Assembly (NCBI GenBank): GCA_035546235.1
Contig: DASZWK010000398.1
Location: forward strand, 3,372 to 67,371
Reading direction: 5' to 3'
Source of the DNA: Xanthobacteraceae bacterium
GTDB lineage: Bacteria > Pseudomonadota > Alphaproteobacteria > Rhizobiales > Xanthobacteraceae
Length of the DNA stretch: 64,000 nucleotides
Position numbers and translations under genes: made by a program. How positions within the stretch are numbered: the stretch's first letter is position 1; every line of letters begins with the position of its first letter. Under the pieces are notes generated by a model. It made no database searches and was not told the DNA's origin. It saw only the letters and a list, made by a program, of their open reading frames with translations. Positions 52,856-64,000 of this stretch are shown piece by piece.

Positions 52856-53398
52856 TCAGATCCGCCCCGGGAACTTGATGATGAAGTTGTCGCGGTTCGG
52901 CATCTTCACTTTGGGCAAGGTCTGCGCGTTCATCGGCTCGTCTTGCGGAATGATGTTGTTGCCGGCGAGCAGATAGGCGCACAGCGCGTAGACCTCGTCG
53001 TCGGAGAGCGTGTGCGGCGTCGGCCACGGCATGGCGCGGCGGATGTAGTCGAACAAGGTCGAGGCCTGGCCCCAGAAATTGGCGATGGTCTTGTTGGCGT
53101 CGATACCGGGTTCGGTCAGCGATGGATTGCCGATCAGCTCGTTGGACTTGCCGCCGCGCGCATCCTTGCCGTGGCAGATCGAACAGCCCTTGTCGTCGAA
53201 CAGTTTTGCACCCTGCGCGGCGGTGCCGCTGCCGGGCGGCAGGCCGGTGCCGTCGGGCAGAATGGTGATGTCCCAGGCCTTGATGTCGTTCTCGGTCACC
53301 GGCTTGCCGAGGTTCGGCGTGTTGGCGGCGAGCGCGGCGGATGAGGCGAGAACGAACACGAGCGCGGCGGAGGAGGCGAGGAGCTTAAGCGTAGACAT
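52856..53398 (-). CDS. sorB: cytochrome c subunit of sulfite dehydrogenase (SorB/SoxD-like)
   Basis: ATG 53398 gives a signal peptide (ASSAALA/AN). One CSICH heme-binding site. It overlaps the upstream Mo-enzyme gene by 14 nt. Confidence 0.7.
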   Translation of the reverse strand: MSTLKLLASSAALVFVLASSAALAANTPNLGKPVTENDIKAWDITILPDGTGLPPGSGTAAQGAKLFDDKGCSICHGKDARGGKSNELIGNPSLTEPGIDANKTIANFWGQASTLFDYIRRAMPWPTPHTLSDDEVYALCAYLLAGNNIIPQDEPMNAQTLPKVKMPNRDNFIIKFPGRI

Positions 53399-54701
53399 GT
53401 TTGATCTCCCCCTTGGCGTCGATGCCCCAGGCGGTGAGGCTGTTGTAGTGCTGGTTGGCGAAGGCATAGGGGCTCTTCACCGGCTTTTTGGTCTCGCCGC
53501 GCAGTTTGACAAAATCGGCGCGCAGCGGCTGCACCGCGCCGGAATCGTCCCAGGCGCGGCTGGTGATGGTGACCGGCTGGCCGTTCCAGCGCCACGGCAT
53601 GCGGAAACGCGTGAACGCCTTCGGCACCGCCGGGCCTTCCACCGCGGCCTCGCCCCAGCTCTGGCCGCCGTCGGCGGAAACCAGAACCTTGGTGATGGTG
53701 CCGGTGCCCGAATAGGCGATGCCGGAGATTTCGTAATAGCCCGGCGCCTTCAGGCTCATGCCGAACGACGGCTTGGTGATGAAGGATTTCACCTCGTTGA
53801 CGAAGTAGAAGCGGTAGGCCTTGCCGTCGGGCAAGAGCGGCGAGTAGTTGCGCGTCTCGTAGAAGGTCATGGCCGGCTGGTCGATGATGTAGAGCCGGCG
53901 CAGGAATTTGATGTTCATGTTGCCTTCGAAGCCCGGCAGCAGGAGCCGCATCGGATAGCCGTTGCCGGGCATCAGCCGCTCGCCGTTCTGATAGAATGCG
54001 ATCAGCGCATCTTCGTAGCCCTTCTTCAGCGGCACGCTGCGGGCGACCAGAAGGTCGTCGGCGCCTTCGGCCATCATCCATACCGCCTTCGGATCGACGC
54101 CGGCTTCGTCGAGGATGACCGACAGCGGCACGCCGGTCCATTCGGCGCAGGAAACAAGGCCGTGCAGCTGCTGCACCGTCGCCTGCAACGGCACGTTGGA
54201 GAACATGGCGGCGCTGTTGCCGCCGCACTCGACGAAATGTTTGCGCGTGACCATCGGGTAGCGCAGCAGATCCTCGACGGTGAATTCGAGCGTGCGCTTC
54301 ACCATGCCATGGACGATGAGGCGGTGCTGCGCCGGGTCGATGTCGGGAATGCCCGAATGCAGGATGGTGAAATGCAGCGGGTTCGGCGTGATGGTGCCGT
54401 CGAGCATCTGCAGCGGCGCGCGGGCGTGCTGGGTGCGCGCCTCGCCCTTGGGGTTGGACAGGATGCGCACCACGTTCTTTTCGAAGCGCGACGGCGTCTG
54501 CATGACCGGCGTGACAATGCCGGGCATGTTGGTCCAAGGGGGATTGGTCAGCGGCTCGGCTGCGGCGCTGCTGGCGGCGGCGCCGGTGGTCATTGCGCCG
54601 GCAAAGGCGATGCCGCCGCCCAAGAGCGCGCGGCGGTGCAGAAGGCCGTTGCCGGCGACTTCTTCCAGCGGCGCGGGGCCGCCGGTCAGGCGTTTCCTCA
54701 T
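53385..54701 (-). CDS. sorA: molybdopterin-dependent sulfite dehydrogenase catalytic subunit (SorA/SoxC-like)
   Basis: Tat signal HRRALLGGG, plus sulfite-oxidase-type Moco and dimerisation domains. ATG 54701 is preceded by GGAG. Confidence 0.8.
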   Translation of the reverse strand: MRKRLTGGPAPLEEVAGNGLLHRRALLGGGIAFAGAMTTGAAASSAAAEPLTNPPWTNMPGIVTPVMQTPSRFEKNVVRILSNPKGEARTQHARAPLQMLDGTITPNPLHFTILHSGIPDIDPAQHRLIVHGMVKRTLEFTVEDLLRYPMVTRKHFVECGGNSAAMFSNVPLQATVQQLHGLVSCAEWTGVPLSVILDEAGVDPKAVWMMAEGADDLLVARSVPLKKGYEDALIAFYQNGERLMPGNGYPMRLLLPGFEGNMNIKFLRRLYIIDQPAMTFYETRNYSPLLPDGKAYRFYFVNEVKSFITKPSFGMSLKAPGYYEISGIAYSGTGTITKVLVSADGGQSWGEAAVEGPAVPKAFTRFRMPWRWNGQPVTITSRAWDDSGAVQPLRADFVKLRGETKKPVKSPYAFANQHYNSLTAWGIDAKGEIKHVYA

Positions 54702-54831
54702 TGGTGTCACTCCGGGCTTTCCGGCATCCATCGACGCCGTCGCCATGGTCTATCCGTTGGAGCGGGTGGGACTTCTCCCGCGCGCATGTTGCGTCATTCG
54801 GGGGGGAATGTGAAGGGCGCTATGTGCGTGT

Positions 54832-54931
54832 GTCATCATCCGCGAAAGCGGATGATCCAGTAATCGCTGCGTCCGAGGAAAAGGACAGAGAGTCGTTGAC
54901 TACTGGATGCTCCGCCTTCGCGGAGCATGAC
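54832..54931. repeat. inverted-repeat element, family C (GTCATCATCCGCGAAAGCGGATGATCCAGTA ... TACTGGATGCTCCGCCTTCGCGGAGCATGAC)
   Basis: An imperfect terminal inverted repeat of about 31 bp, read directly. Only a single copy occurs in the window. Confidence 0.5.
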
Positions 54932-54953
54932 AGGTCGGCGGTTGGCGTCGCAC

Positions 54954-56036
54954 CTACGCCTTCAATCTTGGCAGCAGCGCGAGCGCGTTGGTGCGGTCGA
55001 TGGCGGCGCGGGCGGTATCCGACAGGCCGTCATCGGAGAGATGTTTTTCGCCGGCGGCGACGCTGACGAACGGGTAGTCGGTGCCGAACAGGATGTGGGA
55101 GAGCGGCGCCATCGCCCGCAGCGCCGCCATCGACGGCGCGGTGTCGGCGCTTGCGGTGTCGTAATAGAGCTTGCGCAATTCGGCGAGCACGCCGTCCGGC
55201 ATAAATTTCTTTGCGTTCGGATGGTGGCCGAGCGTCTCGACCATGCGGCCCGCCATCATCGGCGTGGCGCCGCCGCCATGCGAAAAGATCCAGCGGATGT
55301 CCGGATTGTTATGGACGGTGCCGTTGACCAGGATGCTTGCGATCGTGCGCGTGGTCTCGAAGGGGTATTCGATCGCCTGCGGCGGCAGGCCGGGCTGCAC
55401 CGCGCTGCAACACGCCGACGTGGTCGGGTGCGTGTAGACCACCGCCTTGCGGCGATTGAGTTCGGCGAACACCGGCGCGAAGGCCGGATCGCCGAGATAC
55501 TTGCCATCGTAGGACGACAAGAGCCCGATGCCGTCGGCGTGCAGCGTGTCGAGCGCGTATTCGATTTCCTTCAGGCTGCCGTCGGTGTCGGGCAGGGGGA
55601 TCACGGCGAACAGGCCGTAGCGGCCTTTAAAAGTGCGGATCTGCTCGGCGGCGAAGTCGTTCCACATCCGCGATAGCCGCCGGCCGGCCGGTACGTCGCC
55701 GAACCACGGGCCGGGTGTCGACACTGAGACGATGGCGGTCTCGACGCCGTTGCCGTCCATGGCTTCGAGCGAAAATTCAGGCTTCCAGGACAAGAGGCGA
55801 TCAGTCGACACGCCGCCGTGTTTGAAGCTGATGCGCTCGTGCTCTTCCTTCATGTAAGCCGGCGGCAGGAAGTGATGATGCACGTCGATGCGGGTGCCGG
55901 GCTTCTTGATCGCGGGGGCCATCGGCGATTGGGCGCGCACGGCGGGCGCGGCGAGGCCGGTCGCCGCCGCGGCAAGGCCGCCCAGGAGGAATCCCCGGCG
56001 TCCGACGCAGCAGGTGCATCCCGAGAACAGGGCCAT
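54954..56036 (-). CDS. amidohydrolase-2 family (ACMSD-like) protein with Tat signal
   Basis: GRRGFLLGGLAAAATGLAAPAVRA signal and a DVHHHFLPP metal motif. Confidence 0.8.
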   Translation of the reverse strand: MALFSGCTCCVGRRGFLLGGLAAAATGLAAPAVRAQSPMAPAIKKPGTRIDVHHHFLPPAYMKEEHERISFKHGGVSTDRLLSWKPEFSLEAMDGNGVETAIVSVSTPGPWFGDVPAGRRLSRMWNDFAAEQIRTFKGRYGLFAVIPLPDTDGSLKEIEYALDTLHADGIGLLSSYDGKYLGDPAFAPVFAELNRRKAVVYTHPTTSACCSAVQPGLPPQAIEYPFETTRTIASILVNGTVHNNPDIRWIFSHGGGATPMMAGRMVETLGHHPNAKKFMPDGVLAELRKLYYDTASADTAPSMAALRAMAPLSHILFGTDYPFVSVAAGEKHLSDDGLSDTARAAIDRTNALALLPRLKA

Positions 56037-56056
56037 GTTTTCCTCCCCGGCTTTTT

Positions 56057-56181
56057 GTCATTCCGGAAGCCGCGAAGCGGCTGTCCGGAATCCATAACCA
56101 CAGGTCGCGCAGAACGCTTGCCGCGCCGCCGGTGGTTATGGATTCCGGGCTCGCGGGCTCTCGCCCGCGCCCCGGAATGAC
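56057..56181. repeat. MITE/REP-like inverted-repeat element, family B, copy 2
   Basis: GTCATTCCGGAAGCCGCGAAGCGGCTGTCCGGAATCCATA...TATGGATTCCGGGCTCGCG...CCCCGGAATGAC. It fills the gap between the TPP-enzyme stop and the amidohydrolase start. Confidence 0.7.
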
Positions 56182-56184
56182 AGA

Positions 56185-57993
56185 TCAATTCCCCGCGCGC
56201 GTCATCGCCTGGGTCATGACCGCGGTATAGCCCGGCTCGACGCGTACATCGACGACGGCGACCCTGCCGGCATCGACTTCGGCGATGGCCTTCTTCAGGG
56301 CCGGGCCGAGATCGGCGGGCGAGGTGATCGGACCGAAGCCGACGGCGCCCTGGGCGCGGCCCATGGCGGCGAGGTCGACTTCCGGCTCGGACATGCGCTG
56401 GCCGATCCACTTGTTCTCGATCGGCCGGTTACGCGCGCGCGCCATCCGCTCCTGATGCAGTTCGTCGTTATAGAACGAGCGGTTGTTGGCGAGCACGAAG
56501 AGGAGCGGGATTTTGTAATGCACCGCGGTCCACACCGCGGTGACGCCCATCAGAAAGTCGCCATCGCCGCAGATCGCGATCGGCAGCCGGCCTGAACCCT
56601 TGAGCGCCAGCGCCGCGCCGACCGAAATGCCCGGGCCGCCGCCGACGCCGCCGCCGCCATCGGAGCCGAGATAATCGAGCGGGTGCTTGAATGCGACCCA
56701 ATTCTCATCCCACGACAGCGGCAGATGCGTGTACGTCACCGCCCGATCGCCGACGAGCTTTTTCAGCTCGCGCGCGATGACCTCGTTGGTGAAGCCGGTC
56801 GGCTCCTTTGCGGCGACCTTGCGCGCGCTCGGCACCGCGTGCGGCTTTGTGCTCTTGCCGACTTCTTTGACCAGCTCCGGCACCACGAGGTCCGGATCGG
56901 CGGAGAGCAGAATATCGACCGCCGGCAGCGCCTGGTGGTCCATGCTCCAGCCGTTGTGGATGCGGTGGTCGAGCGACACCTGGATCACCTTGACGGACGG
57001 TGACGGACCCCAGTGGCGCAGCGCGCCGGCGAGATCGACCCAGTCGAGGCTGAGCACGACATCGACGTCCTTGAGACCCTCGACGGCCTCCGGGGTCGGC
57101 GCGCGCGGCGCACCGGCATAGAGCGCGTGATCGGTCGGGAAGGTGGCGCCGATTTTCAGATCGGTCAGGACGCGGGCGCCGAGCGCTTCGGCGAGCGCGA
57201 CGCGGGCGTTCCAGGCCTCCTCGCTGCGCGAGGCGCGGCCGGCGAGGATGAGCACCTGCCGGGCGCCCTTGAGCATCGCGGCGGCCTGCTTGACGAGCTC
57301 CGGGGGCGCCGCGGTCGAGACCTGCGGCATGTAGCGCGCCGGATCGATCGTCGGCAGTGGATCGGAGACCTTCATCTCCTGCAGTTCGGCATCGAAATTG
57401 ATGTAGACCGGACCCTGCGGCACGGTGTTGGCGATCCAGTTGCCGCGCATGATCGCTTCGCGCGCAGCGCCGGGCGAGGCCGGCTGGTCGTCCCACTTGG
57501 TATATTCGCGCACCAGCGCGCCCTGATCGCGCGCGGTGTGAATCCAGTCGATCCAGGGCCGGCGCTTGACGGCATCGACCGGGCCGGTGGCGCCGAGCAC
57601 CACGACGGGCATGCGATCGCACCAGGCGTTGAACAGCGCCATCGAGGCGTGCATCAGCCCGACATTGGAATGCACCGCGGTGACCATCGCCTTGCCGGTG
57701 ACCTTGGCGTAGCCCTGAGCGATGGCGACGGCGGCCTCTTCGTGCAGGCAGAGCAGCATCTGCGGCCTGGAATTGCCGAGATAGTTGACGATCGAGTCAT
57801 GCAGGCCGCGATAGCTCGCGCCGGGAGTGAGCGCGATGTAGGGCACGTCGAGCGAGCGCAATGCGTCGGCGATCACGTCCGAGCCGAAACCGGGCGCGTT
57901 GGCGCCGGCGGGCGTCGGCCGTTCGATCTTCGAGACCGTGGGATCGGCGGCGCTGGGGTTGACGCGAGCGGTCGCGGATTGGGGAGGCGTCAT
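56185..57993 (-). CDS. thiamine-pyrophosphate-dependent enzyme (acetolactate synthase/benzoylformate decarboxylase superfamily)
   Basis: Three-domain TPP enzyme with a C-terminal GDGDF...NN TPP-binding motif. I prefer ATG 57993. Confidence 0.8.
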   Translation of the reverse strand: MTPPQSATARVNPSAADPTVSKIERPTPAGANAPGFGSDVIADALRSLDVPYIALTPGASYRGLHDSIVNYLGNSRPQMLLCLHEEAAVAIAQGYAKVTGKAMVTAVHSNVGLMHASMALFNAWCDRMPVVVLGATGPVDAVKRRPWIDWIHTARDQGALVREYTKWDDQPASPGAAREAIMRGNWIANTVPQGPVYINFDAELQEMKVSDPLPTIDPARYMPQVSTAAPPELVKQAAAMLKGARQVLILAGRASRSEEAWNARVALAEALGARVLTDLKIGATFPTDHALYAGAPRAPTPEAVEGLKDVDVVLSLDWVDLAGALRHWGPSPSVKVIQVSLDHRIHNGWSMDHQALPAVDILLSADPDLVVPELVKEVGKSTKPHAVPSARKVAAKEPTGFTNEVIARELKKLVGDRAVTYTHLPLSWDENWVAFKHPLDYLGSDGGGGVGGGPGISVGAALALKGSGRLPIAICGDGDFLMGVTAVWTAVHYKIPLLFVLANNRSFYNDELHQERMARARNRPIENKWIGQRMSEPEVDLAAMGRAQGAVGFGPITSPADLGPALKKAIAEVDAGRVAVVDVRVEPGYTAVMTQAMTRAGN

Positions 57994-58072
57994 ACAGGCA
58001 TTTCCTCTTATGGGTTGGCAGGGGGTGGCTGGATCGGAACGTGGGCCGCATCCAACCGGATCATGAGCCAAA

Positions 58073-59335
58073 TCACAAGCCAGCGCGCAAGCGGGTGAGA
58101 AGTCCCACTCCGGCATAGCCGTCGGCCGGCTCAATGCCGATTTTGCGCTGGTAGGCCTGCACGGCCAGCATGGTCTGGGTGCCGACGCGGCCATCGGCGC
58201 CGCCGGTGTCGAAGCCGAGCGCGGTCAGACGGCGCTGGATTTCTTCGATGTCGGCGAGCGTCGGCGCCGGCTCGCCGCCTGGGAATTGTTGCACGAACGG
58301 CTCGCCGCCGACGCAGCGGTCGCCCAGATGGCAGAGCGCGAGCGCATAGCTGGTCGACGGATTGTAGCTTTTGACCGCAAAGAAATTGGCGCCGAGCAGG
58401 AACGCCGGGCCGCCGGGTTCCGGCAGCCACGGCCGCGCCGTGTCGTTCAGCCGCTGAAACGCCGCGCCGTCGGCGCGCGTGACGCCGGCCGCCTCCCAGG
58501 CCGCATAGCTGCGCGCGCCGCCGCGGGCGAGCTTTTGCGGCATGCGCACCTCGTAGCCCCATTGCTCGCCGCGGCGGTAATGGCCGCGCTCGACGAAAAA
58601 ACGCGCAGTGGTGGCCAACGCATCGTCCGGCCGGCCGTACGGCGAAATTTTTCCGTCGTGATCGTAATCGAGGCCGAGATGCAGCCACACCTCGGGCATC
58701 CACTGGGTGTGGCCCATGGCGCCGGCCCAGGAGCCGGTCATCGCTTCGGGCGTGCTCCAGCCGCGTTGCACGATGGTGAGCGCGTTGATCAGTTCGCTTT
58801 CCCAATAGGCGCGCCGCCGCGGCTCGGCCCAGGACAACGCGGCGAGCGACGGAATGACCGGCTTCATGTGGTTCTTTTCGACCAGCGGATCGCCGAATGT
58901 CGACTCGACGCCCCAGACGCCGAGCATGATCGCCGGCGAAACGCCGTAATCCTTCTCGATGCGCGCGAGCAGCGGCGCATAGTCCTTGGCGACCTTGCGG
59001 CCAGTGACAATGCGCCAGTCAGAGACGCGGCGATTGAGGTACTGCCAGAGTTGCTCGCGGAATTCGGGCTGGTTGCGGATTTCCTTGAGCCCGGTCATGT
59101 CGGGTTTGAGCCCGGTCATGACGCGCGTGTAGGTCGCTTCCGTGATGCCGTGCGCTTGCGCCTTGGCGCGGAACGCGGCGACCCAGCGATCGAACGTTAT
59201 TTCTTTGCTTGGCTTGGGCCGCGCTGCGGCGTGCTTCGTGTGTCGCGCTGCGCTTGCGCCATTCGGAAAAATCGCAGCGGCGCCGCCGGCGAGCGCTGTC
59301 AGGACGCGTCGTCTGTCGATCCCCGCCCGTGCCAA
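58073..59335 (-). CDS. lytic murein transglycosylase (MltB-like) with C-terminal peptidoglycan-binding domain
   Basis: Tat/Sec-like N-terminus, the GVESTFG catalytic region, and a C-terminal IQRRLTALGFDTGGADG PG_binding_1 repeat. Confidence 0.85.
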   Translation of the reverse strand: MARAGIDRRRVLTALAGGAAAIFPNGASAARHTKHAAARPKPSKEITFDRWVAAFRAKAQAHGITEATYTRVMTGLKPDMTGLKEIRNQPEFREQLWQYLNRRVSDWRIVTGRKVAKDYAPLLARIEKDYGVSPAIMLGVWGVESTFGDPLVEKNHMKPVIPSLAALSWAEPRRRAYWESELINALTIVQRGWSTPEAMTGSWAGAMGHTQWMPEVWLHLGLDYDHDGKISPYGRPDDALATTARFFVERGHYRRGEQWGYEVRMPQKLARGGARSYAAWEAAGVTRADGAAFQRLNDTARPWLPEPGGPAFLLGANFFAVKSYNPSTSYALALCHLGDRCVGGEPFVQQFPGGEPAPTLADIEEIQRRLTALGFDTGGADGRVGTQTMLAVQAYQRKIGIEPADGYAGVGLLTRLRAGL

Positions 59336-59343
59336 GTGCTGTG

Positions 59344-59910
59344 TTAGTCCTTCGCGCGCTCGATGTAGCTGCCGTCGTCGGTATTGACGACGATCCTGGT
59401 GCCCGTGGTGACGAACGGCGGCACCATGGTGCGCACCCCGTTCGACAGTACCGCCGGTTTGTAGGACGACGATGCGGTCTGCCCCTTCATGGTCGGCTCG
59501 GTCTCCGTCACTTCAAGGGTGGCGCGTGGCGCAATCTCGATCGCGACGGGTGTGCCTTCATGCAGGCTGATGGTGACCTCCATCTCCGGGTGCAGATAGG
59601 CGGCCGCGTCGCCGATGATGTCGGCCGGCACCGCGACCTGGTCGTAGCTCTCCATGTTCATGAAATGGAAGCCGTCGCTGTCCTGGTACATGAACTGGTG
59701 TTTGCGGTCCTCGACGAACGCGCGTTCCACCTGGTCGGTGGTCTTGAAACGCAGCGCCAGCTTCACGCCGTCGGCGATGCGGCGCACGTCCATCTGCGTG
59801 ACCGGGGTGCCCTTGCCGGGATGGATGTTCTCGGTGGTCACGATGACCGCGAGCTTGCCGTCGATATCGACGATATTGCCTTTGCGTAAGCTACTGGCGA
59901 TGACTTTCAC
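59344..59910 (-). CDS. efp: elongation factor P
   Basis: 188 aa with a loop HPGKGTP (Lys33). Confidence 0.95.
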
Positions 59911-60043
59911 GGGAAAACGTTCCTTGCCTGATGACGCCCGGAGCCGAATGGCGCCCAGAGCCTAATGGTGCCCAGATTCGGCGCAACATACCGATCCTGA
60001 AGCTAATCGCTAGTTATTTCCGCAAAGTACTGCCGACAAGGTT

Positions 60044-61099
60044 ATGACGGACAAAGTGCCCGATTCTTCGCCCTTTTGGGCCCCACACGTCCATGCCGAC
60101 CGGCGTCCGGCGCTGCTGGCGCGCATGCGCATCACGGCCGCCCTGCGACGCTGGTTCGGAGCGAACGATTTCGTCGAGGTCGAGACCGGGGCGCTCGCGG
60201 TTTCGCCCGGCAACGAAACCCATCTGCACGCCTTCGCCACTGCGCTGGCCGCGCCCGACGGAACCGCGGCCCCCCTCTATCTGCGCACGTCGCCGGAATT
60301 CGCCTGCAAGAAGCTGCTCGCCGCCGGCGAGCGTCGCATCGTCGAGTTTGCCAAGGTTTTTCGCAACCGCGAGCGCGGCGCGCTGCATGCGCCCGAATTC
60401 ACGATGGTCGAATGGTATCGCTCAGGCGAGCCCTACACGGTCCTGATGGCGGACTGCGCGGCGCTGCTGGCCGAGGCGGCGCAGGCCGCCGGCACTTGGC
60501 ATTTTTCCTCCCGGGGCCGCTCGGCCGATCCGTCGGCAAAGCCGGAGCGGCTGTCCGTTGCCGAGGCATTCGGCCGTTATGCCGGCATCGATCTCTTGGC
60601 GACGCTCGATCGCGGGCAGGGCGACCGCGACAGCCTTGCGCGCGCGGCGCAAATCGCGGGAATCCGCATTGCCGACGACGATACCTGGGGCGATATTTTC
60701 AGCCGCGTGCTGGTGGAGAAAATCGAGCCGAAACTCGGCATCGGCCGCGCTACCATCCTGGACGAATACCCGGCAGAGCAGGCGGCGCTGGCGCGGCCGT
60801 CGCCGCACGATCCGCGCGTCGCCGAGCGCTTCGAGCTTTACGTCTGCGGCGTCGAACTCGCCAACGGCTTTGCCGAACTCACCGACGCGCGCGAGCAGCG
60901 GCGGCGCCTCGAACGCGAGATGGCGGAAAAACAGCGCCGCTACGGCGAGCGCTATCCGCTCGATGAGGATTTTTTGGCGGCGCTCGCACACATGCCGGAC
61001 GCGAGCGGCATCGCGCTCGGGCTCGATCGCCTGGTGATGTTGGCGACCGGCGCCGCGCGCATCGATCAGGTGCTGTGGGTGCCGCCGTCAGGCCCATGA
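60044..61099 (+). CDS. epmA: EF-P lysine aminoacylase (class II LysRS paralog, GenX/PoxA)
   Basis: Class II aaRS motifs (LRTSPEF, FRNRERGALHAPEFTMVEWY). It has no anticodon-binding domain and is divergent from efp. Confidence 0.85.
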   Translation: MTDKVPDSSPFWAPHVHADRRPALLARMRITAALRRWFGANDFVEVETGALAVSPGNETHLHAFATALAAPDGTAAPLYLRTSPEFACKKLLAAGERRIVEFAKVFRNRERGALHAPEFTMVEWYRSGEPYTVLMADCAALLAEAAQAAGTWHFSSRGRSADPSAKPERLSVAEAFGRYAGIDLLATLDRGQGDRDSLARAAQIAGIRIADDDTWGDIFSRVLVEKIEPKLGIGRATILDEYPAEQAALARPSPHDPRVAERFELYVCGVELANGFAELTDAREQRRRLEREMAEKQRRYGERYPLDEDFLAALAHMPDASGIALGLDRLVMLATGAARIDQVLWVPPSGP

Positions 61100-61127
61100 A
61101 CGGCCGCCGCTCGCTGAGACTGGCGGT

Positions 61128-62249
61128 TCACATCCCGGCGACCAGTTTCACCAGATCGCTCTGTCGCTTCTTTCCGGTTTTTCGGAAGACATTGTGCAAA
61201 TGCGTCTTCACTGTCGATTGTGTCACGCCGAGCCGGTCGGCGATCGCCTTGACGCCGTTGACTTTGAGTAGCGCGTCAAACACCCGCACCTCGCTCGCGG
61301 TCAGCTTGTGGAGTTTGGCGATCTCCTCCAACGGAGACAACGCATTCGGCGCCGTCTTGCGTATGAATACGGCGGCCACGGCAGCATGCTTGTCGCCGGC
61401 TCGCCGTCGTCTTCCGGACGTTAATGGCAGCACATGCGCATACCATCGCTCGTTTGACGCATCTTCGAGCGGCACTGCGACGCCGCGCACGCCAACGGAC
61501 GCATCTCCCTTTCCGGCCGCAACAAAGAGGTTCCGCAGGGTGCGGTCGGCGTTTGACGCGACGGCGCGCAGCGCATTACGGTCCATCCGCACCAAGCTTG
61601 CCTCGCCGAGCATTTTTTTTGCAGTGCCGTTTGTGAACGCGATCTGCGCCTTGGCGTCGACCAAAAAAACCGCCGCTTCGACGTGATCGAGCGTTTCCGT
61701 GAGCGCCTGCTCGGTTGCTTTGCTTTGATCAAACAGTCTGCCGATCGCCACCGCACGCTGCAAATGCGGCACAAGCAGGCCGAGGCGGCGCCGCATCCGG
61801 TCTTTCAGCGGCGCCGTCATGCGCACGTTGATCATTGACGTGCGCAGGAGCCCTTTCTCCAGGTTCACGGAAAGTGCGGCCAGGGTGCCTTGCGGCTTGA
61901 TCCACTCCTTGTAGAAGCGCGTCTTGTTCAACTCGGCGCGCGGCATGATATCTTCGTCGGCGACGACGACGCCCTCATCGACAAAACTTGCGGCCGGGAA
62001 CATCGGGTTGAGCGGCAGATACTTCTCAAAATAAAGTCGAAGGTAATACGGATCGAAGTTATATAAATGCACGGCTTCGGAACGCTCCAGCGCCGAATCG
62101 TGCCACAGGAGCGCGGCCGACGAGCCGCCGACAAAGGCGCAGATGTTCCCGAGTGCCTGGTTCCAAAGCGTCGGATCGATCGCCGCGTCGTAGATATCGC
62201 CGATGACAGCCGAGAGTTCGGCCGCTTCTGACGCCATTTGCCGCCCCAA
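61128..62249 (-). CDS. LuxR-family transcriptional regulator
   Basis: C-terminal HTH LTASEVRVFDALLKVNGVKAIADRLGVTQSTVKTHLHNVFRK. The N-terminal sensor domain of about 300 aa is of unknown type. Confidence 0.75.
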   Translation of the reverse strand: MGRQMASEAAELSAVIGDIYDAAIDPTLWNQALGNICAFVGGSSAALLWHDSALERSEAVHLYNFDPYYLRLYFEKYLPLNPMFPAASFVDEGVVVADEDIMPRAELNKTRFYKEWIKPQGTLAALSVNLEKGLLRTSMINVRMTAPLKDRMRRRLGLLVPHLQRAVAIGRLFDQSKATEQALTETLDHVEAAVFLVDAKAQIAFTNGTAKKMLGEASLVRMDRNALRAVASNADRTLRNLFVAAGKGDASVGVRGVAVPLEDASNERWYAHVLPLTSGRRRRAGDKHAAVAAVFIRKTAPNALSPLEEIAKLHKLTASEVRVFDALLKVNGVKAIADRLGVTQSTVKTHLHNVFRKTGKKRQSDLVKLVAGM

Positions 62250-62454
62250 AATCCGGCGAAAATTCCAACATCAATCGCGCGCCGGATCAACAGAAAAACG
62301 CATAAAACCTTCGGAGCGGTATTGCTGCCAATCGGGGTGTGCAATGCGATTGGCGCCGGCCGCGGCCAGAGTGACGAAAGCGCGAGCGCGCGGGGCATTC
62401 GGCGCGTCGTGTGGCGCGATGTCCAGGGGGGCTCTCGGGCCCGCTGAGCGGACC

Positions 62455-63675
62455 TTATTGGGCCGCCTGACGATTCTCGGCGGCTTCGATCTCGACCGAA
62501 AGGGTGGGCGAGATGCGCGCCCAAATGTGCCCGAAAATGCGCTTCCAGCTCTCGCAATAGACGCTCGGATTGTCGTAACGGCGTTCGCGCGACCAGCGCT
62601 GCGCCAGATGGCCGCCGCCGCAGGAATCCAGATACTCGCAACTCATGCAGGTGTCGCACAGATGCGTGCTGGCCTCGAAGGCCTCGCGCCATATCGGATC
62701 GGTCCGCACTTCCTTGATGGCATTGCTGCTGACGTTGAGCTTCGAGGCCGTGGAGCCATTGCCGGCGATGCGCAGCACGTCGAGCGGCTCGAGCGAACCG
62801 TCGGCCATCAGCGTCACAGTCTCGATCGGGCCAAGCCCGATGGTGTCGGACAGCGATAATTTGCCGACCAAACCACGGATCATGGCGTCGAGCGTGGCGA
62901 TGCGGACACCGCGCGCCGCGTATTTGTCGAGCCAGACGTCGAACAGTCTGATGAAATACGCGTCGATCGCCGGCGGATTGTCGGCGTGCGTCGCATCCGG
63001 CGGCAGGATGTCGAATTCGAGAGTGCCGAGTTCGTCGACCACGAAGGCCAAGACTTTTTCCGGATCGGTGCCCGGATTGCACACCGAGATCAGGCCAGGG
63101 TCGATGCCGTTCCTGCGCAGGCATTCAATGCCCTTGAGCGTCTCCGCGAGCGTGCCGCGACCCTTGAAGTCGATGCGGTACTTGTCGTTGATTTCCTCAG
63201 GCCCGTCGATGCTGACGGTGACGCTGATGTCGTGGGCCTTGAACAGCTCGACCCAAGCGTCGTCGACCAGAATGCCGTTGGTGGTGATGCCGCGCGCGAT
63301 GAAGCAGCCGGTGCGTTCCTCGATCGCGCGCAGCTTTTTCATGAACGCGTCGAACCTGTGCTTGGGAAACAGCAGCGGTTCGCCGCCGTGAAACACCACC
63401 AGAAAATACTCGAGGTTGAATTCGCGAATGTGCTCTTCGAGGCGGGCGCAGAACGCATCCTCGGAATCGCGTGTCAGCACCGCGGGCTTTTTGTAGACGT
63501 CGGCGTCGCGAAACCAGTAGCAGTAGGTGCACTTGATGTTGCAGCGCGAGGCGAGCTTGATCAGAACGAAGCTGAACGCTTCAGGCTCATGCGCAATGCG
63601 TGGGCCGTGCATCAGGCTTTCCGGACCGGGCGCGGGGATTTCGACCCCTGCGGCTTGCGTGTCGGAGTTGGGCAT
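62455..63675 (-). CDS. radical SAM/SPASM-type peptide maturase-like protein (FxsB/cyclophane-forming-like)
   Basis: CNIKCTYC (CX3CX2C) near the N-terminus and a C-terminal Cys cluster CDTCMSCEYLDSCGGG...YC. ATG 63675 is preceded by AAGGAAGGA. Confidence 0.8.
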   Translation of the reverse strand: MPNSDTQAAGVEIPAPGPESLMHGPRIAHEPEAFSFVLIKLASRCNIKCTYCYWFRDADVYKKPAVLTRDSEDAFCARLEEHIREFNLEYFLVVFHGGEPLLFPKHRFDAFMKKLRAIEERTGCFIARGITTNGILVDDAWVELFKAHDISVTVSIDGPEEINDKYRIDFKGRGTLAETLKGIECLRRNGIDPGLISVCNPGTDPEKVLAFVVDELGTLEFDILPPDATHADNPPAIDAYFIRLFDVWLDKYAARGVRIATLDAMIRGLVGKLSLSDTIGLGPIETVTLMADGSLEPLDVLRIAGNGSTASKLNVSSNAIKEVRTDPIWREAFEASTHLCDTCMSCEYLDSCGGGHLAQRWSRERRYDNPSVYCESWKRIFGHIWARISPTLSVEIEAAENRQAAQ

Positions 63676-63824
63676 GGCTCGTCCTTCCTTCGACGGTTGC
63701 CGCCGCGCAATCGCGCTGGCTCGCATTCGCAGTCTTAGCTGCTGATTCTCAGCTTCCGGTTTCTTGGCTGCCGCCTCTCGACTGCCGATCAGGGCTGGCG
63801 TTGAGGCGCGCTGTAAGCCGAGCT

Positions 63825-63857
63825 GAAAACGGCGCGCCGGCAAAGCACCGGCGCGCC
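63825..63857 (-). terminator. terminator/attenuator-like hairpin between the small ORF and the radical SAM gene
   Basis: The minus strand has GGCGCGCCGG-TGCTTTG-CCGGCGCGCC (a perfect 10-bp stem) followed by GTTTTC. Confidence 0.5.
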
Positions 63858-63867
63858 GCCAAAGCGC

Positions 63868-64000
63868 CTAGTAGCGGGCGTAGGTGCGGAAGTAATTACG
63901 GTGATAGTAGTAACGATTGTAGAAGCGGCGGAACCAGCGGCGGAACCAAGCCGTCTTCTCCATCGGCGTGCCGACGGCAGCGGCCGGCACCTGCGGGCCT
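63868..64000 (-). CDS. aromatic/Arg-rich small ORF (5' end outside window), candidate RiPP precursor
   Basis: My manual translation gives ...GPQVPAAAVGTPMEKTAWFRRWFRRFYNRYYYHRNYFRTYARY* with TAG at 63870-63868. It is not in the ORF track because fewer than 60 codons lie in the window. Confidence 0.5.
   Translation of the reverse strand, partial: GPQVPAAAVGTPMEKTAWFRRWFRRFYNRYYYHRNYFRTYARY

Follow-up and report, generated by a model that had tools for sequence, protein, structure and literature searches.

A two-gene cassette of a putatively signal-bearing, aromatic- and arginine-rich peptide and a radical S-adenosylmethionine enzyme of the cyclophane-forming type in Xanthobacteraceae

A short open reading frame (ORF) crowded with aromatic and arginine residues runs off one end of a 64,000-nucleotide stretch of Xanthobacteraceae DNA (contig DASZWK010000398.1 of assembly GCA_035546235.1, positions 3,372 to 67,371; hereafter the window), directly upstream of a gene for a radical S-adenosylmethionine (SAM) protein; is it a true gene, and does it encode the substrate of that enzyme? 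The edge of the window cuts a two-gene cassette composed of a gene for a small, putatively signal-bearing peptide and a radical SAM enzyme gene of the cyclophane-forming (triceptide) type; its gene structure, the family-wide conservation of its motif, the homology of its enzyme and the strict linkage of the two genes are direct observations. The pair probably constitutes a minimal two-gene system for a peptide that is made on the ribosome and modified after translation (RiPP), in which Tyr/Phe-to-Arg cyclophanes would be made in the cytoplasm and general export would follow, the chemistry, docking and export being inferred.

The precursor is represented in the window by the 3' end of its gene, 44 codons and a stop at 63868..64000 on the minus strand; translation of 63999-63868 gives GPQVPAAAVGTPMEKTAWFRRWFRRFYNRYYYHRNYFRTYARY with the stop codon at 63870-63868, and reproduces the tail sequence that a first-pass annotation had read from the letters of the window alone, including the 13 Trp, Phe or Tyr, one His and eight Arg among the last 26-27 residues. 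The gene has its start codon 197 nt past the edge of the window; the full sequence was taken from locus L002, which is 99.8% identical over window positions 53001-64000 (window 64000 being L002 9397) and extends 9.4 kb, and also from L001. The exact enzyme sequence is present on 18 public contigs, and the upstream gene is 109 aa long in 10/10 of the contigs retrieved, so that the small precursor presumed to lie upstream of the enzyme is a real 109 aa gene. Its product, MDVSEISRELSEGKLSRRGLADRLKVLGLGFGAAFALGVTGAQAATTPDASVALKSTNVSIDSIIKGPQVPAAAVGTPMEKTAWFRRWFRRFYNRYYYHRNYFRTYARY, is translated from an ATG preceded by a GGAG ribosome-binding site and is laid out as a polar n-region, SRR, a Gly/Ala-rich hydrophobic stretch (VLGLGFGAAFALGVTG), AQA, an LKSTN box, a linker and a 26-residue core.

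Alignment of 23 precursors features S-R-R-x-F/L-x-D-R-L-K followed by L-G-x-G-F-G-A-A and A-x-A, then a conserved box (V-x-L-K-S-T-N-P-A-L-x-x-I-I) and a variable acidic linker. The part of this linker that lies within the window (63949..64000, minus strand) ends, according to the same alignment, at the conserved junction ...EKTA / W; an almost invariant Ala immediately precedes the core, the 23 precursors sharing a conserved junction Q-x-A / W/Y. The core peptide itself, WFRRWFRRFYNRYYYHRNYFRTYARY, occupies 63871..63948 on the minus strand. Searched against Pfam and NCBIfam, the window precursor matches no family, even at E = 10; a leader-only profile retrieves 299 clusters from a large protein database, all of 84-160 aa and all annotated as hypothetical. 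The NCBI entries for the pair in the window, which are from Xanthobacteraceae, are labelled "hypothetical protein" and "radical SAM protein". No described family had been recognized for the core at first; the precursor family has neither a Pfam or NCBIfam model nor a functional annotation in public records, perhaps because it is seen only in uncultured soil Alphaproteobacteria.

The core of the window precursor has a net charge of approximately +8 and is devoid of Lys, Asp, Glu and Cys. All eight of its Arg residues have Trp, Phe or Tyr at position -2; shuffled versions have a mean of 3.84 such residues, and 0.06% of 200,000 shuffles reach eight (P = 6e-4). Across 83 distinct family cores the same is true of 787 of 844 Arg residues, compared to 327 +/- 12 in shuffles. 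When only the last Arg of each Arg run is considered in these 83 cores, Tyr occupies position -2 in 86% and Phe in 13% of cases. Position -1 is unconstrained (R, A, S, G, H, N), and no conservation is seen at -3; Trp is found there and never at -2. With Tyr and Phe together accounting for 99% of the residues at -2 of that last Arg, the repeating unit is (Y/F)-x-R, and the window core holds six such sites: FRR, FRR, YNR, YHR, YFR and YAR. The tail had first been parsed into aromatic-X-(Arg/Asn) triplets (WFR, WFR, FYN and so on); the aromatic-x-Arg pattern seen there is indeed beyond chance, but the repeating unit as defined by the family is (Y/F)-x-R, in which the Arg does not vary.

The motif is maintained while the sequence around it changes. 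Between the window and L034, which are 91% identical, the core carries four substitutions (Y to F twice, N to H and A to G), all at free positions and with every motif kept. The core is hypervariable in length (13-62 residues), in contrast to the conserved leader; the family composition is 34% Arg, 26% Tyr and 10% Phe, the remainder being small residues, His and Trp, with no Lys, Asp, Glu or Cys. The unit is displayed most plainly in YRRVSYRRLPYGRVIYKRIPYLRGPYGRIPY (L029) and in the (YSR/YAR)n core of L017. An aromatic residue ends 79/83 cores, and this residue is not part of any (Y/F)-x-R unit.

Linkage of the two genes was scanned from both sides. The enzyme-first scan, restricted to one genome per species, returned 79 loci; those with an enzyme at least 59% identical to that of the window, taken together with the window-type contig L001, make a set of 26. 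These at least 59% identical enzymes all belong to metagenome-assembled Alphaproteobacteria (Xanthobacteraceae, Beijerinckiaceae, Methylocapsa, Methylovirgula or Rhizobium-labelled bins). A homologous gene of 100-160 aa is located just upstream of the enzyme in 26/26 of them. The precursor-first scan of metagenomes, seeded with the leader only, gave 35 loci, of which 32 have enough downstream DNA; the enzyme begins 73-314 nt after the precursor stop in 31/32. The coupling of the peptide gene to this enzyme clade thus holds in both directions, and the contrary case, a larger Sec-exported protein occurring apart from the radical SAM gene, is not what is seen; the N-terminus does resemble an export signal, but the protein is small, and the only copy without an enzyme has decayed. 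This sole exception, L123:690-1184, has an intact leader (LSRRLLLNHLRGLGIGFGAAF...LRSTNPALNKII), a non-aromatic tail and no enzyme downstream, and is apparently a decayed copy of the precursor. A hidden Markov model (HMM) of the leader gives one match per locus, only beside enzymes at least 59% identical to that of the window and never beside those of more distant clades; extra tandem copies of the precursor, suspected at L019 and L014 from their wide gaps, were ruled out by a single match in each. Throughout the 26 loci no third gene is conserved beside the pair, and no linked protease or ATP-binding cassette (ABC) exporter was found.

The enzyme is a 406 aa radical SAM peptide maturase of the three-residue-cyclophane type, assigned from its NCBIfam, Pfam and PDB matches and its invariant Cys, and is encoded at 62455..63675 on the minus strand. 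As had been noted from the letters alone (with a gap of about 190 nt), its gene follows the precursor closely, beginning 192 nt past the stop and preceded by the ribosome-binding site AAGGAAGGA. A longer ORF of 462 aa starting at TTG is also possible; the ATG start of the 406 aa form is preferred because it agrees with the gene calls in public records for this very sequence and with the point at which the homolog alignment begins. The radical SAM motif CX3CX2C, read as CNIKCTYC, is formed by Cys45, Cys49 and Cys52, and a Cys-rich block, LCDTCMSCEYLDSCGGG...C, is present near the C-terminus, both as originally reported; the match to Pfam Radical_SAM has E = 1.3e-15, and the CX3CX2C cysteines are invariant in 15 homologs. 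The C-terminal Cys are C340, C343, C346, C352 and C374; C343-x2-C346-x5-C352-GGG and C374 align with Cys of ChlB and are likewise invariant in the 15 homologs. The seven-Cys SPASM motif is incomplete because no Cys occurs between residues 199 and 340, and the enzyme probably carries one auxiliary cluster. Maturases that bear a RiPP precursor recognition element (RRE) align to the radical SAM core only (residues ~38-190); with the first Cys motif already at residue 45, the enzyme therefore has neither an N-terminal RRE nor a signal peptide.

Scored against NCBIfam, the enzyme reaches 288 bits for YhhB (NF041707; curated cut-off 445), 257 for FxsB (TIGR04269; 370) and 192 for XyeB (TIGR04496; 450); the other families follow with DynA at 128 (450), the anaerobic sulfatase-maturating enzyme (anSME) at 127 (349), DarW at 100 (650), PapB at 87 and DarE at 83 bits (650). 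It is under every curated cut-off, as are the related clades, and is therefore a member of no named family. The best PDB match is ChlB, with 204 bits (E = 2.8e-59) over residues 36-389, compared to 83 bits for the anSME structure 4K36. Judged by these scores, the enzyme falls in the three-residue-cyclophane clade and not with the sulfatase maturases or cofactor enzymes, in agreement with the triceptide-maturase type proposed at first; the clustering with sulfatase-maturating or cofactor SPASM enzymes that would have spoken against that proposal is not found.

Of the systems already characterized, YhhA/YhhB is the closest by model, since NF041707 scores best and aligns over the full length, and the aromatic-x-Arg logic is shared (Sugiyama et al. 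2022, as summarized in PMC11002830 and PMC11499958). The links made by YhhB run from Tyr-C3 and from His-C2 to Arg-C-beta (PMC11002830). The window enzyme is nevertheless well under the 445-bit cut-off, its precursor is unrelated and has no NCBIfam match, and its cassette has no YhhC-type hydroxylase; the precursors of the window family instead have an N-terminus of the export-signal type and 6 to ~20 motifs. ChlB (PDB 9GM3/9GMC), the radical SAM domain of a fused radical SAM/alpha-ketoglutarate-HExxH triceptide synthase, is the closest solved structure; CX3CX2C, C-x2-C-x5-C-GGG and the downstream Cys all align, and its motif is also Tyr-x-Arg, the native form being YDR (PMC11499958). ChlB is fused to a hydroxylase domain, however, whereas the window enzyme stands alone, and an additional invariant Cys of the window family (C340) corresponds to Ala in ChlB. 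In FxsA/FxsB and XyeA/XyeB (XncB) the enzyme has the same architecture and the precursor gene likewise precedes the enzyme gene, but the window enzyme is below both cut-offs and their short precursor families differ; the links made by these enzymes run from Phe or Trp to Ser, Asn or Arg (PMC11002830). The darobactin and dynobactin maturases are more distant in score (DynA, DarE and DarW, above), and the unit of the window family is (Y/F)-x-R rather than aromatic-x-aromatic.

Extension past position 64000 shows the precursor to begin with a putative signal peptide of the twin-arginine translocation (Tat) or general secretory (Sec) type. The N-terminus of the window copy reads LSRRGLADRLK...AQA; RR is kept, Leu replaces Phe and no basic residue is present in the c-region. 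SRRx[F/L] is found in 98/120 representatives (SRRxF in 54, SRRxL in 44), and both the h-region and A-x-A are retained family-wide. TIGR01409 (TAT_signal_seq) matches 6/23 members (best E = 0.0076) and formate_TAT 5/23, and these are the only specific NCBIfam matches; Pfam returns no Tat-signal match. A basic c-region residue (Lys/Arg) is a Sec-avoidance feature of Tat signals, and in this family it is present in 39/50 SRRxF, 11/43 SRRxL and 0/19 second-Arg-lost members (39/50 versus 0/19, Fisher P = 1e-9). Due to the retention of SRRx[F/L], the matches to Tat models and the covariation of the c-region, the family looks ancestrally Tat-targeted. The Tat route makes sense for a peptide that needs a cytoplasmic Fe-S enzyme before export; the subclade of the window, which has SRRGL and lacks a basic c-region, may be on its way to Sec or to relaxed targeting.

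A general export signal in place of a classical leader has its nearest parallel outside the radical SAM enzymes. Precursors bearing signal peptides are documented for RiPPs modified by multinuclear non-heme iron-dependent oxidases (MNIOs), where they are termed highly unusual; the bufferins and related MNIO RiPPs resemble the window system in using a general-secretion signal, in being modified in the cytoplasm and in having no dedicated transporter (PMC12452194, PMC13056109). They differ in requiring an MNIO and a partner protein, in their Cys-derived heterocycles, in their Sec or lipoprotein signals and in copper binding; the window family is mostly of the twin-arginine type and has a core without Cys. 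A literature search for Tat or signal-peptide radical SAM (cyclophane) RiPPs found no such system. The cassette is probably an undescribed variant of the triceptide class; some members of its family may sit unnamed in the Sugiyama 2022 similarity network.

The following pathway is proposed for the pair. The LKSTN box (V-x-LKSTN-x-x-I/L-x-x-II) probably docks the enzyme, which, in the cytoplasm, would take a hydrogen from the side chain of each motif Arg, most likely from C-beta as in YhhB; the Arg carbon would then be joined to the Tyr or Phe ring two residues upstream. This crosslink chemistry is extended from homologous enzymes, and would yield as many as six three-residue cyclophanes, with a change of -2 Da for each and -12 Da in total. 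The modified peptide would leave by the general machinery of the cell, because the cassette encodes no protease or transporter, with signal peptidase I cutting after AQA; most of the family would use Tat, and the subclade of the window possibly Sec. The product is predicted to be a rigid, strongly cationic peptide of 65 residues with an isoelectric point of ~10.3, located outside the cytoplasm, and further trimming at the conserved A/W junction is possible.

Several points count against this pathway, and some of them favor other readings of the same pair. The type, position and number of the crosslinks are extrapolated from enzymes matched below their family cut-offs (YhhB 288/445, FxsB 257/370); the Pfam SPASM model does not match the enzyme, and an AlphaFold2 model built from a 15-sequence alignment was discarded (mean predicted local distance difference test score of 58, under 50 in the C-terminal third), leaving the auxiliary cluster sites unreadable. 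The near-invariant aromatic C-terminus and the Q-x-A junction are left unexplained by the proposed pathway. On the export side, the window precursor matches no Tat-signal model in NCBIfam, and the second Arg is lost (RG, RS, RH, RA) in 16/120 representatives, all of them in the subclade of the window; this decay, together with the missing basic c-region residue, makes Tat export of the window copy doubtful. The same enzyme and substrate could be joined by another chemistry, whether at Arg C-gamma or C-delta (as in WprB and the ryptide synthase RrrB), through ether or C-N bonds (as in darobactin and dynobactin), or in the Arg-x-aromatic direction, with the conserved aromatic residue at the C-terminus as partner. 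With the score under the trusted cut-off of every named family, specificity is not safely transferable, and the DynA and DarW models also reach 100-128 bits; the aromatic last residue, being outside (Y/F)-x-R, fits an R-x-aromatic or R-aromatic reading, and WprB is reported to form links from Trp-C5 to Arg-C-gamma on a W-P-R motif (PMC11851443). Such a chemistry is nonetheless judged unlikely; the top three matches and the best structure are all aromatic-to-C-beta cyclophane synthases, two of which act on Y-x-R, Trp is never the conserved -2 residue, and the position of the Cys motif leaves no space for an N-terminal RRE of the RrrB/WprB type.

The hydrophobic N-terminus could alternatively be a leader or membrane anchor, in which case the peptide would stay cytoplasmic, be tethered to the inner membrane or be freed by an unlinked protease at Q-x-A. 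The failure of the Tat-signal HMMs on the window copy and the loss of the second Arg in its subclade would suit this explanation, as would the Q-x-A / W/Y junction, which is as expected of a leader protease site; furthermore, the characterized triceptides are all cut right before the first cyclophane motif (PMC12912966). It is considered quite improbable given that the n-region, the RR motif, the Gly/Ala-rich h-region and A-x-A are conserved family-wide, that Tat-signal models are the sole specific NCBIfam matches, and that a linked protease or ABC exporter is found in 0/26 loci; the covariation of the basic c-region residue with canonical RRxF is hard to explain for a mere docking leader. In the last alternative, the substrate is some other protein and the enzyme a SPASM enzyme of the sulfatase-maturase-like or cofactor type, with the aromatic/Arg-rich ORF unrelated or spurious. 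The anSME (TIGR03942; PDB 4K36), a radical SAM enzyme that is homologous, comparable in length and likewise stand-alone, modifies signal-peptide-bearing substrates in the cytoplasm prior to export; its models match the window enzyme over the full length, which reflects common ancestry. Its 127 bits are, however, far below both its own cut-off and the triceptide-synthase scores, the window locus has no sulfatase neighbor, the precursor gene is the only neighbor conserved next to the enzyme, and the motif in the substrate differs altogether. A ribosome-binding site and a conserved leader mark the small gene, which is coupled 1:1 to the enzyme clade, the lone orphan copy having lost its core; this alternative is extremely improbable and is effectively refuted already by the linkage data.

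A bolder version of the two-gene, export-after-crosslinking pathway is held only tentatively, and is somewhat doubtful. It would be a distinct biosynthetic logic, in which a cyclophane synthase matures a Tat-targeted mini-protein whose signal doubles as the RiPP leader, and export awaits stapling, much as it awaits cofactor insertion in classical Tat substrates. The product (up to ~20 rings, rigid, protease-resistant, polycationic and with an obligatory aromatic C-terminus) would act in the periplasm or outer membrane of the producer itself, and not as a secreted antibiotic; targets might be anionic envelope polymers, or outer-membrane assembly or quality-control factors that read aromatic C-termini. 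The subclade of the window would then be a Tat-to-Sec switch in progress.

Between the two genes lies a G+C-rich hairpin (63828..63860, minus strand) with a 14-bp stem followed by UUUUC; RNA folding of a 66-nt stretch containing it gives -37.6 kcal/mol (z = -3.3), which agrees with the hairpin noted in the first-pass annotation. A scan of 62200-64000 for a consensus terminator and promoter gave no match, the U-run of the hairpin being shorter than the rule requires. In ~14/25 related loci a stem of 10 bp or more is found 3' of the precursor stop, with unrelated sequences. The hairpin is likely a partial terminator or mRNA stabilizer, and its recurrence fits differential expression of precursor and enzyme.

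The gene following the enzyme, at 61128..62249 on the minus strand, encodes a LuxR-type regulator with a C-terminal GerE domain (E = 8e-8; the public gene call starts at 62237), as had been observed, but it is not part of the conserved unit. It is present in every contig with the identical enzyme that reaches far enough downstream, absent from 25 other related loci, and an indel relative to L011 (an 88% identical locus), where an EpmA-like gene directly follows the enzyme; confined to the lineage of the window, it was ruled out as a member of the cassette. An upstream thiamine pyrophosphate (TPP) enzyme was likewise ruled out, being present in 5/26 loci; this gene and those for lysylation of elongation factor P (EF-P) are common to the closest relatives only. 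The RiPP cassette sits between EF-P lysylation genes: EF-P and an EpmA-like lysyl-tRNA-synthetase paralog are encoded in the window at 59344-59910 (minus strand) and 60044-61099 (plus strand), and an EpmB/KamA-like radical SAM gene (Radical_SAM and LAM_C) lies just past the window edge at L002:5966-7051. The latter was rejected as a partner of the peptide; it carries a LAM_C domain and is grouped with the genes for EpmA and EF-P.

A carbon-nitrogen hydrolase of ~340 aa (PF00795, E = 1e-39 to 1e-42) is encoded directly 3' of the enzyme in 8/26 loci (L019:5368-6480, L021:5221-6249, L024:5252-6289, L025, L030, L031, L033 and L079:5238-6260), mostly those with long (Y-R-R-F)n cores; the gene is absent from the window, and the hydrolase may be an accessory tailoring or processing enzyme. 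Enzymes of ~40% identity adjoin other unannotated precursor types in L044-L075 (Bradyrhizobium and relatives), L041/L042 and L040 (Filimonas), such as MPITTLKVLASLLQLHGPGATIQSDHQGI...FRRGGFVRG...FRRGGFVRGY (Bradyrhizobium), ...YYYGKGDYAKYVKGKYAKAA and FDRCFNKFDRCFNKFDRCFNKFERN; none of the precursors at these loci has a signal-like N-terminus or an NCBIfam model. At ~50% identity, enzymes are also found outside the Proteobacteria in L035, L036 and L039 (Thermomicrobiales, Microbacterium and Microbispora), where a crude scan upstream gave no aromatic/Arg-rich ORF. L047:4001-4633 encodes the C-terminal half of the enzyme only (residues 196-406, 65% identity), has no leader match nearby and may be a truncated pseudogene.

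Triceptides are a young, fast-growing class, and the characterized examples use classical leaders and dedicated processing. If the proposed pathway is correct, the cassette would be a radical SAM cyclophane system with a general export signal as its leader, an arrangement so far found reported for MNIO-modified peptides only; because only two genes are needed, it would be a simple system for heterologous work. The family would also constitute a natural library of at least 299 clusters, with cores of 13-62 residues composed almost exclusively of Tyr, Phe, Trp and Arg, that would be useful for understanding how one enzyme processes tandem sites and as a source of stapled cationic scaffolds. Furthermore, the decay of Tat features in one subclade would provide a series for evolutionary study and would make the relation between stapling and export route a testable question.

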